DNA from: Candidatus Babeliales bacterium
Lineage (GTDB): Bacteria > Babelota > Babeliae > Babelales > JBFXEV01
Direction: 5' to 3'
Length of the DNA stretch: 64,000 nucleotides
NCBI GenBank assembly: GCA_963716425.1
Contig: OY970310.1
Coordinates: 1,275,639 to 1,339,638 of the forward strand
Part shown: piece by piece, positions 23,788 through 42,273 of the stretch
How positions within the stretch are numbered: position 1 is the first letter of the stretch
How the letters are laid out: every line of letters starts with the position of its first letter
The notes under the pieces: model-generated
Seen by the model: the letters and a program-made list of their open reading frames with translations, nothing else
What the model was told of the DNA's origin: nothing
Database searches by the model: none
Translations under genes and position numbers: made by a program

Positions 23788-24201
23788 GGATCAACAACAA
23801 TTAATAAGCCGGATTCTGTTATTGCATTGCAATATGGCAACCATTTATCTATGCAACGTACCCGTACGTTTTAAACCGGAATAAACGACCGAACGTACTG
23901 TTTGTCTTGCTCCTGGTAGGGTTTACCCAAATAAAACATTGCTGCTTTACTTTGTGCGCTCTTACCGCACATTTTCACCCTTTCCCCAACACGTTTTATC
24001 CTTCGACAAGCTCAGGATGAGCGGTTAAGGTGGTTATTTTCTGTGGCACTCTCCGTCAGACATCTTTTACCTATCTGCCCATGCTTGAGACAAGCTCTTG
24101 CATGGTACCGTGTTTATTAGGAGTCCGGACTTTCCTCTTTCTTGTACCTTCGTAATTAAACGAATTCCAGAGAAAGCGATTACCTAAATTGCTGTTGATC
24201 C
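23788..24201 (-). ncRNA. rnpB: RNase P RNA
   Basis: Minus strand has GAGGAAAGUCCGG, AGUGCCACAGAAAA, GGGUGAAA..GUGCGGUAAGAGCGCAC, GGUAAACCC..GAGCAAG, AGAUAAAUG, ACAGAAUCCGGCUUAU; P1 = GGAUCAACAGCAAUU paired with AAUUGUUGUUGAUCC. Confidence 0.95.
23998..24026. repeat. REP-like repeat inside rnpB
   Basis: atccttcgacaagctcaggatgagcggtt. Confidence 0.75.
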
Positions 24202-37147: not shown

Positions 37148-38605
37148 ATGGAACAAGAAGTAACCAAAAAAGATCTTATCAAACTTGATGAAACTGTGTA
37201 CGAAATCCCTCGCGAATATCGGTCTGATATGTTGGTACCCGCACGATTATTTGCTAATGAAACGATTCTTGATGATATTTTAGAAGATCGTTCTCTCTGG
37301 CAACTTGCAAATGTTGCGACCCTCCCTGGTATTGCAAAATGTGCACTTGCCATGCCTGATATTCATCAGGGATATGGCTTTCCGATTGGTGGCGTTGCAG
37401 CAACTATTATTGATCAAGGTGGTGTCATTTCTCCTGGTGGCATTGGCTATGATATTAATTGCGGCGTTCGTTTGCTTGCAGTAAACATGGATGCCGAAGA
37501 ACTTAAGCCGTATTTGCCCAAATTGGCAGATGAACTGTTTAATCGCGTGCCTTCTGGCGTTGGTCAAGGCGGCAAAATCAAATTATCGCTTGGTGAACTT
37601 GATAAGGTAATTAAGGGTGGCGCAAAACATATGCTTGAGCTTGGTTATGGCACGCCAGGTGATTTAGAACGATGTGAAGAACATGGGTGCATGCCTGATG
37701 CTGATCCGCGCTCAATTTCTGAACATGCAAAAAAACGAGGCTCAGATCAATTGGGTACATTAGGTTCTGGTAATCACTTTCTTGAAGTACAACGAGTTGA
37801 TGAAATTTTTGATGCAAAAGTCGCACAAGCTTTTGGTCTTAAAGTTGGCCAAGTTACCGTGATGATCCATTGCGGTTCACGCGGGCTGGGTCATCAAGTA
37901 TGCACTGATTATGTACGCCTCATGATGCCTAAAATTAAAGAATGGGGTATAACGTTACCTGATCGTGAACTTGTATGTGCACCATTTAAATCTCGTGAAG
38001 CACAAGAATATTTTAGCGCCATGAAAGGCGCTGCAAACTTTGCCTGGGCAAATAGACACGTAATTGGTCATTGGGTGCGGGAAGCATTTGAAATTGCAGT
38101 GGGACCAGAAGCGAAACTTTCTATGGTGTATGATCTTTCTCATAACATGGGCAAGCTAGAAACTCATACCATTAATGATAAACCCACCAAAGTATTAGTG
38201 CATCGCAAGGGAGCAACACGTGCATTCCCAGCAGGTCATCCTGAAGTGCCATTACCGTATCGCGCTGTTGGTCACCCAGTACTTATTCCAGGAACTATGG
38301 GGACTGCATCGTATGTACTTGTAGGAACTGAAGAAGGTATGGATATTGCTTTTGGTTCATCTTGTCATGGTGCAGGGCGCAGATGGTCACGCACCAAAGC
38401 AAAACATGTTATACGAGGTTCTGATCTTAAAAAAGAGCTTGAAGCGCAGGGAATACTTATTCGGTGTGATTCTGATCCAGGACTTTCTGAAGAGGCACCT
38501 ATTGCCTATAAAGATGTTGAAGATGTGGTGGATGTAGTACAAAAATCTAAACTGGCAAGAAAGGTAGTGCGCTTAACGCCATTGGCTGTGATTAAAGGTG
38601 GATAA
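37148..38605 (+). CDS. rtcB: RNA-splicing/repair ligase RtcB
   Basis: MPDIHQGYGFPIGG, DINCG, GNHFLE, HCGSRG, HN, HRKGAT, HGAGR. Confidence 0.97.
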   Translation: MEQEVTKKDLIKLDETVYEIPREYRSDMLVPARLFANETILDDILEDRSLWQLANVATLPGIAKCALAMPDIHQGYGFPIGGVAATIIDQGGVISPGGIGYDINCGVRLLAVNMDAEELKPYLPKLADELFNRVPSGVGQGGKIKLSLGELDKVIKGGAKHMLELGYGTPGDLERCEEHGCMPDADPRSISEHAKKRGSDQLGTLGSGNHFLEVQRVDEIFDAKVAQAFGLKVGQVTVMIHCGSRGLGHQVCTDYVRLMMPKIKEWGITLPDRELVCAPFKSREAQEYFSAMKGAANFAWANRHVIGHWVREAFEIAVGPEAKLSMVYDLSHNMGKLETHTINDKPTKVLVHRKGATRAFPAGHPEVPLPYRAVGHPVLIPGTMGTASYVLVGTEEGMDIAFGSSCHGAGRRWSRTKAKHVIRGSDLKKELEAQGILIRCDSDPGLSEEAPIAYKDVEDVVDVVQKSKLARKVVRLTPLAVIKGG

Positions 38606-38622
38606 AACATATAGGAATTGAT

Positions 38623-39180
38623 ATGCGTTTGTTTGTAGCAATTGATCTTACCGAACCTATTATCGATGCACTGAGTGCTTTGCAAGAAGCGGTTGGCAAT
38701 CTTGATGGGATCGAAATGCGTTGTGTGGAGCCTTCTCAATTGCATCTTACTCTTCAATTTTTAGGCAATGTTACTGAAGAACAATTGCCTGTGCTTATGC
38801 GTGCTTTAGAGGGAGTGCAATGCAAACCATTTAAACTGTGTTTGAATACCATGAGCGTGTTACCAAATGAGAAGCATATTCGTATTATCTATGTGGATCT
38901 TGTGGGTAAAGAAATAGCATCACTTGCAAAACAGATGAAAGATGCAGTGGCACCATTTCTGAATGAGGAACAGCATGACTTCTTAAGCCACGTAACTATT
39001 GCGCGAGTCAAAAGTGTGGAAAATCCTGAGACATTTATAAAAGCTCTTTCAAAAATTAAAATCCCTGAAGTATGTTTTATGACAAGACGATTTGCGCTTA
39101 AGAGATCGGAGCTTTCTTCTGATGGTGCCGAGCACACTATTGTAAAAGAGTATAAGTTGGGGTCGTGCCAGCTTTCATAG
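38623..39180 (+). CDS. thpR: RNA 2',3'-cyclic phosphodiesterase (2H family)
   Basis: MRLFVAI, HLTLQFLG, HVTIAR. Confidence 0.93.
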   Translation: MRLFVAIDLTEPIIDALSALQEAVGNLDGIEMRCVEPSQLHLTLQFLGNVTEEQLPVLMRALEGVQCKPFKLCLNTMSVLPNEKHIRIIYVDLVGKEIASLAKQMKDAVAPFLNEEQHDFLSHVTIARVKSVENPETFIKALSKIKIPEVCFMTRRFALKRSELSSDGAEHTIVKEYKLGSCQLS

Positions 39181-40772: not shown

Positions 40773-40903
40773 CATGATCCTCCGGCTGCTGATTGTAGTA
40801 TGCCAAGAGAGGGTGGTGTGATTCAAGAGTTGGTAATGATTTTGAGTTGGGTTATGAGATCTTAGATAAAAGATTAATGTGTATGTCTTTGGCTTCATTC
40901 TTT

Positions 40904-41082
40904 GACGGTCGTTTCTTTTGATGTGTTAGCACCTTGCGCCTTTCCGGTGAGGATAAAGGATTTTGCTCGCCCAAAACCCTTTAATTAAAAGGGCTCCAGC
41001 ATGGTGCTGGACCCACCGATAACGCCTAGCTTTACGGCTCCGCCGCCACGCCTTCGGCGGACTGCGATCCTGTAAATTAGGC
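40904..41082 (-). ncRNA. Unrecognised structured element, copy A
   Basis: Series of hairpins homologous to copy B with compensatory changes; G-U pairs favour the minus strand. Confidence 0.5.
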
Positions 41083-41279
41083 TATCTAAAGACTTCTTTA
41101 ATTAATAAGATATATTTACTGACTTTTTTACAATCATTTTTCGCCTCTATCGCCGGCTGGGCGAGTTTCATAAACTACTCTTAAAAATGGTGTCAATTAT
41201 TAATACAATGTACAAATCTGGAAAAATCTTTAATTTTACAGAATTACGTTTTAAACCCATTAATGTACATCTTTGATTA

Positions 41280-41463
41280 GCTGATGGGACCCTTAGAACT
41301 TTTTGAAGCAAAAGTTCGCTAGGGGGAGTTTTTCAGCGCGGAGATAAATAAGAACACGTTCTTATTTGCCCTTTTAATTCAAAAATCTTTTGGGCAAGCA
41401 AAAGATTTTGCCCTGCCTGGGAAAGGTCGGAGCGATAGCAAATTCTCATTAACAAACGGCCTC
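41280..41463 (+). ncRNA. Unrecognised structured element, copy B
   Basis: GCCCUUUUAAUU, 11-bp hairpin with GGCAAG loop, CCU..GGAAAGG, short hairpin, AAACG. Confidence 0.5.
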
Positions 41464-41544
41464 GAAGCAACGAAGAAAAGAACTTGCTAAGTTAAATGAG
41501 TTAAAAATAATTTACAAATTTATACAAAATCAAAGTAAAAGTTC

Positions 41545-42273
41545 TTATATAGTCTGCCATTGCAAATAAATATTTTTCCAAAACAAAGCACTGCCTCCGG
41601 GCATAGGGAGATTAAGCAAACCCTGATTGAGAATCTTAATCACCTGTTGTATTTGTTTATGCCGGGTAGATCGCAGATCACGCGTAGTGCGCTTAAATTC
41701 AGTAAGCCAAAAATGGAGCAATTGATTGATGAGAGCAGCACTTTCTTGCTCATTGGGTTTATGCTCTTCAAGGATCTTTAATAACTGGCCAGGATCTCGT
41801 TCAGTGCCAGTTGAGAAAAAAGTGAATAATGGATGAGCTGACGTATCTGCACTGAATGAGAATTGCTTGATAACACAGCGTGATTGGATTGTGGGCAAGA
41901 TGGGATCTTTGCCTGAGGCAAGAAGGATAAAATGATAACCTGCTGGCGGTTCCTCTATAGTTTTGAGCAAACTATTTTGGCACGGTACGGATAATAATTC
42001 TGCTCTCTCTAGTACAAAAAAGAAACGCTCATTATGCTCAAGAGCATAAGCACAGATGGTACGAATGGGCTCTAGTGTTTCAAGCGTATACTGCTTTTCT
42101 GGTTCAATCCACAATAATGCATGATGTTGTTTTTCATAAATCTGTATGCAAGACATGCACATGCTGCATCCCGATTGCGGGCAGAATTGTTGCTGCAAAT
42201 AACTGAGTGCTTCTAGTTCAAGTTGGCCGTGTGTACCCAGCCACAATTGTCCAGGAGGTATATGCTTACTCAT
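41545..42273 (-). CDS. holB: DNA polymerase III delta' subunit-like
   Basis: C..C..C zinc motif, NSLLKTIEEPP, ILPTIQSRC; follows tmk. Confidence 0.88.
   Translation of the reverse strand: MSKHIPPGQLWLGTHGQLELEALSYLQQQFCPQSGCSMCMSCIQIYEKQHHALLWIEPEKQYTLETLEPIRTICAYALEHNERFFFVLERAELLSVPCQNSLLKTIEEPPAGYHFILLASGKDPILPTIQSRCVIKQFSFSADTSAHPLFTFFSTGTERDPGQLLKILEEHKPNEQESAALINQLLHFWLTEFKRTTRDLRSTRHKQIQQVIKILNQGLLNLPMPGGSALFWKNIYLQWQTI

Follow-up and report, generated by a model that had tools for sequence, protein, structure and literature searches.

Two inverted modules in a Babeliales genome are probably the arms of a multiplying non-coding repeat unit with a pseudoknotted RNA fold

The locus and its two modules

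What occupies the gap of approximately 640 bp that separates a 570-codon minus-strand open reading frame (ORF), with weak beta-propeller matches only, from the DNA polymerase III delta′ gene (41545–42273, minus; PF13177) in a Candidatus Babeliales bacterium? The gap lies in a stretch of 64000 nt (contig OY970310.1 of assembly GCA_963716425.1, forward-strand positions 1275639 to 1339638), here called the window, and it is taken up by two modules, A on the minus strand and B on the plus strand, which stand inverted and back-to-back. The original prediction, made from the letters of the DNA, held these to be two copies of an unrecognised structured RNA. On balance, though with considerable doubt, we take A and B to be the arm pair of a single copy of a multiplying non-coding repeat unit, and its outward-facing arms to act as structured RNA. 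The unit recurs in many copies, and its arms are paired in a regular manner, share a fold, favour one strand and are tied to no particular neighbours.

When each is read in its own sense, A and B align over 215 columns with a mean column identity of 74%, and the homology and common order of elements that had been proposed for them are borne out: a long 5′ hairpin, a second hairpin, GCCCUUUUAAUU and an 11-bp stem with the loop GGCRAG, followed by CCU..GGAAAGG and, at the 3′ side, AAACGRCC. Conserved 3′ tails extend the modules beyond the bounds given originally (40904 and 41463), to approximately 40882 (A) and 41486 (B). Folded alone, A reached −66.8 kcal/mol with a z-score of −3.1 (one of 200 shuffled sequences was equally good), and B had a z-score of −1.2, with 23 of 200 shuffles equally good. 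As B alone is no better than its shuffles, single-sequence folding could not carry the claim of structure, and it is the family alignments that do so. The DNA contigs that map to the locus are short and of low depth and contain no joint, their loose ends being other copies of the repeat, and we regard them as neutral evidence.

Copies, arm pairing and unit build

The genome of the window (G000) is a single contig of 1.865 Mb and, in place of two copies, holds approximately 21 arms. BLAST and nhmmer located approximately 15 related stretches, and the counts by search were 15 matches with nhmmer, 14 with R1, a covariance model built from ten core sequences, and 21 at E ≤0.5 with a second model, R2, built from 47 sequences. 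Divergent arm pairs were found at approximately 187, 447, 479, 695, 898, 926, 1316 (the A/B pair), 1422 and 1776 kb, some of the partners being seen by nhmmer or by eye only. Among 105 arms from 13 genomes of the order there are 34 neighbour pairs within 1 kb of each other, and 32 of these are (−,+), with one (−,−), one (+,+) and no (+,−) pair; the core-to-core gap in the (−,+) pairs is 158–573 nt. The spacer between the modules, which had been described as AT-rich, is more than filler, as a GC hairpin box of small size and a further two sequence boxes in it are kept between units. Since parts of the centre are conserved in this way, the thing that is repeated is a unit of approximately 600–700 bp consisting of arm, centre and arm. 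We would thus regard a minus-strand arm, a partly conserved centre and a plus-strand arm as one composite intergenic unit.

The arm cores of G000 are 35–79% identical to one another, and the two arms of one unit, at 46–63% identity, are no closer than arms of different units; an inter-arm duplex was considered and dismissed on this ground. Multiple genomic copies had originally been named, together with decayed inverted repeats, as a way in which the RNA interpretation could fail. The copies are indeed there, but decay is ruled out because internal pairing is kept at core identities of 35–79%.

The common fold of the arms

From 5′ to 3′, every arm is composed of a hairpin P1, a hairpin P2, the 5′ strand of a pseudoknot, a linker L1, the stem P3 with its loop, a short linker, P4, P5, an A-rich stretch and finally one of two conserved tails. 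P1 is long and comes in several unrelated types, A and B being of different type. A P2 helix of at least 4 bp ends no more than 4 nt from the pseudoknot strand in 43 of 47 arms, with sequences that are unrelated. The 5′ pseudoknot strand of 3–5 nt pairs with the first three to four bases of the P3 loop, which has six nucleotides and is GGGCAAG-like, and the L1 that follows this strand has the consensus C-UUUU-GGUU. P3 measures approximately 11 bp and always has U-A pairs at its top, P4 has 4 bp and a loop of the GGAAA or GGGAAA type, and P5 is a doubtful hairpin of 2 bp.

Pairing in these helices was counted on an alignment of 47 arms from six genomes and, for all helices but P3, compared with 500 shuffles; the alignment had been fitted to P3, and the pseudoknot was absent from the search model and hence was not fitted. 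P3 is 97% paired, with compensatory changes in nine of its 11 pairs. The pseudoknot is 75.6% paired against a shuffled mean of 63.4%, a value reached by none of the 500 shuffles, and its pair types among the arms include GC, CG, UA and AU. Similarly, P4 is 71.5% paired against 60.0% (0 of 500 as high), whereas P5, with 71.6% against 68.1% and 72 of 500 shuffles as high, is not significant. Compensatory change with pairing maintained thus supports P3, the pseudoknot and P4, and the GCCC/GGGC pseudoknot suggested originally is supported by covariation above all of the shuffles. The short stem proposed near the 3′ end (gcgc-aag-gugc in A, gucg-gag-cgau in B) did not survive this comparison, being 52.6% paired against 53.8% in shuffles, 382 of 500 of which were as high. 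Sliding the partners by one to three columns lowered overall pairing from 86% to 36–50%.

The U-rich linker was compared with P3 in 105 arms. In 104 of them, L1 positions 1 and 2 are both U, and the two P3 pairs that follow the closing pair are both U-A. At the third position, L1 has U with a U-A pair in P3 in 65 arms and G with an A-U pair in 30, and the combination of G with U-A does not occur. The other arms have A with A-U (two), G with G-C or G.U (three), U with G-C (two, in which the numbering is apparently shifted by one place) and U with G.A or a gap (three, namely two P3-loop inserts and one short P3). L1 runs parallel to the A-strand of P3, starting at the pseudoknot junction, as would a strand that forms a U.A-U major-groove triplex within a pseudoknot of the H type. 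Taken together, the invariance of L1, its covariation with the third P3 pair and its course point to L1 lying in the P3 major groove as base triples. In such an arrangement the U-rich linker would form U.A-U (or G.U-A) triples within the groove at the P3 top. Arms in the G/A-U state represent an old type and, in units from three genome families, have a UUUU-type arm as partner.

Both the helices and the folding energies favour one strand. Helix cells contain 43 G.U as against 25 A.C, and when 225 nt were folded in both senses with RNA parameters, the only ones used, the assigned sense was the more stable in 97 of 103 arms from the phylum of the window (mean difference 8.2 kcal/mol) and, for other phyla, in 54 of 60 arms (8.8 kcal/mol). 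This bears out the strand preference, opposite for A and B, that had been read from the two modules. The fold thus belongs to the outward-reading strand of each arm, so that the two arms use opposite DNA strands, and bidirectional RNA fits this better than does a single-strand DNA transposition intermediate. We suggest that the reading direction of each arm is away from the centre, with RNA as the most likely form, and that the arms may be transcribed either into non-coding RNAs of their own or as part of outward transcripts, in which they would be 5′ modules.

Comparison with known RNA families

The original failure to match the modules to a riboswitch or ribozyme was upheld by scans with Rfam 15 of the window, its relatives and loci from other phyla. 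At the gathering threshold the sole match in the window was RNase P, elsewhere in the stretch; between 40700 and 41700 at E ≤10 there were two chance-level snoRNA matches (E 2 and 6); the loci of relatives gave only a tRNA; units of two further genomes of the order (G148 and G033) gave, at E ≤10, a best E of 0.018 and nothing near a gathering score; and eight other-phylum loci gave no match. Nor did our literature search, which lay outside supplements and subscription journals, find a description of the element, including in the available parts of the genome papers PMC6561590 and PMC4776705.

In behaviour the element is closest to REPINs, which are built from repetitive extragenic palindromic (REP) sequences, and to miniature inverted-repeat transposable elements (MITEs); in its core fold it is closest to the S-adenosylmethionine (SAM)-II/V, preQ1-II and telomerase pseudoknots. 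It was not seen to have the full defining features of any of them. SAM-II, SAM-V and preQ1-II are described in the part of PMC7583470 available to us as H-type pseudoknots in which the 5′ linker makes U.A-U triples in the second stem's major groove, SAM-V having in addition a G.U-A triple. The arms share the H-type pseudoknot with L1 triples, as predicted from sequence, but differ in having an 11-bp second stem and the extra P1, P2 and P4, in matching no SAM model, and in having neither an expression platform nor a common (methionine/SAM) gene context. In telomerase RNA, by the same partial source, a U-rich strand and a U-A helix form a triple helix as part of a pseudoknot that is conserved in structure and not in sequence (PMC7583470). 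The arms likewise have a pseudoknot with a U-rich strand and a U-A helix, yet they are bacterial and multi-copy and have no evident template region, and G000 has no reverse transcriptase. HEARO and the omega RNAs of IscB and TnpB are large, pseudoknotted, multi-copy mobile-element RNAs that were first known as orphan motifs. The arms differ from these in having no HEARO match in Rfam and no adjacent nuclease gene, and G000 contains no TnpB-type domain.

The Rfam results also bear on whether the arms constitute a novel kind of self-cleaving ribozyme that a repeat carries, in the manner of hammerhead, twister and HDV (hepatitis delta virus)-like ribozymes. The compact pseudoknotted fold with invariant unpaired nucleotides, the multi-copy, repeat-associated nature of the arms and an RtcB RNA ligase gene 2.3 kb away would suit such a role, but the arms have no likeness to Rfam ribozyme families and no nameable cleavage site, and RtcB is found in only nine of 16 carrier genomes and not in G148 or G033. 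From the sequence, we consider self-cleavage very improbable.

Distribution across genomes and phyla

R2 matches were found in 16 of 151 genomes sampled from the order, at 1–23 per genome (families f1, f5, f11, f13, f16 and f19), and in 19 of 151 genomes of a second, phylum-wide draw. In the first of these draws, the table puts at least ten matches no further than 700 nt from the start of a contig, which is what assembly-breaking repeats should give. An exact 25-position core pattern, for which we estimate approximately 0.05 chance matches, located 82 loci in named Sulfuricella, Methylotenera, Methylophilus, Methylophaga, Thiotrichales, Cytophagales and Anaerolineales records, often several per genome, and R2 confirmed 63 arms in 80 of the pattern loci. 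These copies share the pseudoknot, L1, P3 and loop described above; their P3 stems come in at least seven different sequences, all of them complementary, and their P1 is long and rich in GC. Their arm pairs, read from the table, are eight (−,+), three same-strand and no (+,−). The core pattern had no match in viral contigs, and a blastn search of plasmids with a Sulfuricella arm gave none.

In the sister species of the same genus (G001), two to three of seven arms are syntenic with G000, and one unit has no counterpart in the corresponding 227-bp gap of G000, which is too diverged for its junctions to be read. In G148 near-identical units occur in both orientations with defined inverted outer ends. 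In five loci from different Methylotenera genomes (L105, L146, L154, L171 and L179) an arm lies approximately 0.5 kb from the same MiaB/RimO-like radical-SAM gene, so that at least one copy looks stably inherited within Methylotenera. Multiplication within genomes together with a patchy presence in several phyla means that the unit behaves like a non-autonomous mobile or duplicative element. Among a ribozyme, a trans-acting RNA and an RNA-based mobile element, which had been put forward side by side, the last fits this genomic behaviour best.

Mobility and partner enzymes

MITEs, such as the Correia element of Neisseria and ERIC, and the palindromic elements of Rickettsia have many copies, no ORF and an inverted-repeat build. 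The present element resembles them in all three respects, in occupying any intergenic site in both orientations and in breaking assemblies. It differs in that no parent insertion sequence or target duplication was found for it, and compensatory change preserves its internal structure to an extent well above the needs of terminal repeats.

The likeness to REPs and REPINs, whose features we take from the available parts of PMC3116915 and PMC3337134, is closer: the element is an interspersed, intergenic, non-coding repeat of two inverted modules with a spacer in many copies, it persists for long in genomes, it is a preferred target of insertion sequences, and there is one single-copy Y1 gene each in G000 and G001. 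However, its arms measure 200–250 nt and have a pseudoknot and triples, whereas a REP is a palindrome of 20–35 nt; an arm's best match is not its partner in the unit (46–63% identity between partners); the Y1 gene is absent from seven of 16 carriers and in G000 is not flanked by arms; and the core sequence is shared across phyla.

These comparisons frame the alternative that the unit is a REPIN-like DNA element, in which folds of single-stranded DNA are recognised by a single-copy HUH/Y1 (RAYT-like) transposase and RNA is irrelevant. The two inverted modules with a spacer, the presence of exactly one Y1_Tnp gene in each of G000 and G001 and the targeting of arms by other insertion sequences, as happens to REPs, all suit it. 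So does triplex chemistry, as T.A-T and G.T-A triples are known in DNA. IS200/IS605-type enzymes, however, act on one strand, and the two arms need opposite DNA strands to fold; moreover, the arms are approximately ten times the length of a REP, their stability depends on G.U pairs (computed with RNA parameters only), Y1_Tnp occurs in only nine of 16 carriers, and the Y1 gene of G000 adjoins no arm. We therefore regard an explanation at the level of DNA alone as unlikely.

The single Y1 (IS200-like) gene of G000 (G000:C1:1128857–1129189) is a weak match of 63 bits with no arm nearby, and Y1_Tnp is absent from G148, which has 23 arms, and from G104, G094, G134 and G101. RtcB occurs in nine of 16 carriers and 43 of 135 non-carriers. 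Both were rejected as partner enzymes, as neither tracks the element across genomes. The rtcB RNA ligase gene of the window, which is followed by a gene for a LigT-type 2′-5′ RNA ligase/phosphoesterase (37148–39180, plus), lies approximately 2–2.3 kb from the unit. Among the neighbours in 80 other-phylum loci, no transposase-like gene recurred.

Other insertion sequences do enter the arms. In at least four units of genome G063 (L087:775–2238, L088, L086:437–1900 and L089) an IS4/Tn5-like element of 1463 bp, with a 462-amino-acid transposase, its own inverted ends and an 11-bp duplication, is inserted into P1, 37–39 nt upstream of the pseudoknot, and L089 also has an IS110-family transposase gene between its arms. 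Having its own ends and its own duplication, the IS4/Tn5-like element is a guest and not the parent of the unit. Such insertions by other elements make the arms a target, as REP sequences are. The outer ends of the G148 units are inverted copies (..CTCTAC and GTAGAG.., TTTAAATTTCATTTT).

Gene context

In G000 the genes downstream of the arms are mutually unrelated (groES-groEL, a VKOR-like membrane protein, an acetyltransferase-like protein and hypothetical secreted proteins) and begin 64–294 nt past the arm tail. Inspection by eye showed a ribosome-binding site downstream of three arms (c926m, c926p and c1776p) and, in the case of c926m and c926p, a promoter-like box as well. Four of 13 G000 arms, B included, have no co-directional gene. 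Five G148 units lie among the genes for FtsW, RuvB, YebC, YicC, DnaE, PPDK, CTP synthase, a nucleoside transporter and RF-1, where eight of ten arms point into the 3′ end of a convergent gene, and in Proteobacteria the neighbours are ordinary genes.

Given this context, the idea that each arm is a cis-acting leader (riboswitch or attenuator), in which a SAM-II-like triplex aptamer controls the downstream gene, is close to refuted. In its favour are the H-type pseudoknot with major-groove triples, as the available part of PMC7583470 describes for SAM-II, SAM-V and preQ1-II, and a co-directional ORF within 330 nt for nine of 13 G000 arms, groES-groEL among them. However, the genes are unrelated, four of the 13 arms face none and eight of the ten G148 arms face a convergent one; the gene starts lie 64–294 nt further on, and no terminator or ribosome-binding-site-sequestering stem follows the arm. 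In whole-genome scans at E ≤10 the SAM-II and SAM-V models (RF00521 and RF01826) gave eight and two weak matches, none of them on the 21 arms. It had been argued from the lack of a gene downstream of B that this module is not a simple riboswitch; as neighbours are unrelated, have putative promoters of their own or are convergent, the conclusion is supported for the family, and an arm is not a sensor for its adjacent gene.

Readings of the unit

How the unit is maintained and spread could be explained in more than one way. We propose that its pseudoknot-triplex core may be recognised by host or other machinery for the upkeep, spread or cellular use of the unit. A bolder version, which we offer tentatively, is a protein-free mobile unit crossing phyla, whose arms are a new functional RNA class with a pseudoknot and triple helix and which is copied or maintained via this RNA fold and not by an encoded transposase; the arm RNA could then be a ribozyme or a recruiter of machinery that all hosts have, for example RNA polymerase, a recombinase or a nuclease.

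An equally tentative alternative is that the arms are paralogous, divergently transcribed pairs of host-beneficial small RNA genes, trans-acting or components of ribonucleoproteins, every copy of which is kept by selection and which spread mainly by duplication and recombination. P3 is 97% paired although the G000 cores are 35–79% identical; the arms within a unit come from different subfamilies, L1 types UUUU and UUGU being paired across three genome families; some copies are syntenic between species; no transposase accompanies the element; and the P4 loops resemble, by eye, GNRNA-type loops. All of this speaks for host RNAs. Less easily accommodated are a copy number of 1–23 per genome with patchy presence within the order (16 of 151), near-identical copies that break assemblies, the want of a conserved single-stranded ‘seed’ beyond the core, and a core that is nearly the same in distant phyla, which horizontal movement explains more easily.

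Several results weigh against the view that we favour, a multiplying unit with arms acting as RNA. The 47 arms are related, so that the shuffle figures overstate significance and are not probabilities, and, as the G/A-U type is shared across three genome families, the triple position may have changed independently only a few times, perhaps two or three. Promoter-like sites in the centre, counted on both strands, are at chance level (three found against 2.3 expected), and in one Sulfuricella unit only approximately 55 nt separate the two P1 hairpins, which leaves little room for two promoters. With regard to movement, the G001/G000 comparison, which is too diverged, revealed neither a target-site duplication nor a clean empty site, and no duplication could be discerned in the G148 units. 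G000 contains no dispersed multi-copy ORF and no TnpB-type domain (PF07282, no matches, with control genomes positive), reverse transcriptase or IS110 transposase, and Y1_Tnp is found in nine of 16 carriers as against 45 of 135 non-carriers of the order. Finally, the arm cores of G000 are old (35–79% identical) yet almost all intact, and this, together with the partly syntenic placement of copies and the shared Methylotenera neighbour, resembles selection by the host on every copy more than it does a selfish element.

If the proposed triples are correct, a large element with a pseudoknot and covarying triples, supported by more than 160 examples from at least four phyla, would join the short list of natural major-groove RNA triple helices, for which the part of PMC7583470 available to us names only catalysis, ligand binding and stability as functions. 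That a gene-less repeat keeps an elaborate fold over deep divergence and in unrelated bacteria prompts the questions of which agent copies it and how the host benefits. Carriers in culture (Methylophaga, with M. muralis and M. sulfidovorans, and Sulfuricella, with Sulfuricella sp. T08) make its transcription, fold and function directly testable. For annotation, the unit explains recurrent ‘empty’ intergenic regions of 0.6–0.7 kb and contig breaks in carrier lineages.

Features of the A/B unit

Arm A is read on the minus strand. Its P1 (41020–41082), placed by folding and shared sequence, is the long 5′ hairpin of a ‘type 1’ 5′ domain common to the arms at 447 kb and 898 kb of the genome. P2 (UCCAGC-ACCAU-GCUGGA, 40995–41011), placed by folding, abuts the pseudoknot, whose 5′ strand A-GCC (40992–40995) has its partner GGC in the P3 loop (3′ strand, 40968–40971), both strands being supported by covariation. 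L1 (C UUUU AAUU, 40983–40991) is the proposed third strand of the U.A-U major-groove triplex on the top of P3, and P3 itself (40955–40982; 11 bp, AAAGGGUUUUG and CAAAAUCCUUU, loop GGCGAG) is supported by folding and covariation. The P4 hairpin CACC-GGAAA-GGCG (40937–40949) has one A.C mismatch and is supported by covariation in the family; the P5 mini-hairpin GU-GCUA-AC (40925–40932; columns 135–136 with 143–144 of alignment A5) is weak. The 3′ tail (..AAACGACCGUCAAAGAAUGAAGCC.., 40882–40924) aligns with the conserved tail GGCCNCGAAGGAACGAAGAAA of other arms, and covariance-model matches on arm A run from 40882 or 40888 to 40995.

The unit centre (41083–41279) is partly conserved between units. 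It contains the GC hairpin box (41142–41165), a stretch common to other units (..AAGAGTAGTTTATGAA.., in the minus-strand reading) and, upstream of arm B, the box AATTTTACA..TAATGT.

Arm B is read on the plus strand and begins with a P1 of ‘type 2’ (41280–41337), in which folding places a stem GCUGA/UCAGC that encloses the hairpin CCCUUAGAACUUUU..AAAAGUUCGCUAGGG; an alignment of type-2 P1 domains has compensatory changes by eye (CGUUGAG/CUCAACG and GCUUGA/UCAAGC). P2 (AAAUAAGAAC-AC-GUUCUUAUUU, 41346–41367) is supported by folding and by the P2 count given above. The pseudoknot 5′ strand UGCC (41367–41370, covariation) and the L1 that follows it (C UUUU AAUUC) together span 41367–41380, on the evidence of alignment and covariation. 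P3 (AAAAUCUUUUG and CAAAAGAUUUU, loop GGCAAG, 41382–41409) is supported by folding and covariation, and the pseudoknot 3′ strand in its loop (41393–41396) and the P4 hairpin GCCU-GGGAA-AGGU (41415–41427) by covariation. P5 (GC-GAUA-GC) and the 3′ tail (..AAACGGCCUCGAAGCAACGAAGAAAAGAAC..) occupy 41432–41486, as judged by alignment and model match, and the tail points towards the DNA polymerase III delta′ gene at its 3′ end.

Minor observations

The 570-codon ORF has its first ATG at 40898, inside the arm A tail and aligned to ACG in other arms, and its true start is probably approximately 120 nt further in (40773–40898, minus); at approximately 40776 there is GGAGGA and then ATGATG, from which the protein opens with the signal-peptide-like MMRNITFLVLLF. 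Two kinds of small ORF were examined by eye and rejected: a 29-codon ORF across the centre of the A/B unit is shortened to eight codons in G001, and the frames that start at ACG or ATG in the arm tails are not conserved. The RNase P match in the window is a bacterial class A RNA (23790–24195, minus; 193 bits).

In a third subtype of arm (G000:C1:446677–446957, 479737–479908, 1443600–1443830 and 1210092–1210196) the P3 loop has 4 nt (GCAC), all of them complementary to an upstream GUGC, and the 3′ half is different; one of these arms lies upstream of groES-groEL. A hairpin module of approximately 55 nt (..GCCGUAGUCAGCCAAGCCUGAAGGCCUGGAUUGACGUAGGAGG..) is found inside the P3 loop of two arms (G000:C1:927025–927193 and 1776888–1777057) and again in the 5′ domain of others (at 187.7 kb, and in L032 and L049 of G033), and it looks like a sub-module that moves between positions. 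In Methylophaga muralis (L169, 5300–6080) a unit is flanked by palindromes of the GTTGGG..CCCAAC type, and the units of L045 and L056 in G033 are flanked by a repeat of approximately 35 nt that ends in ..CAGAATGACA.

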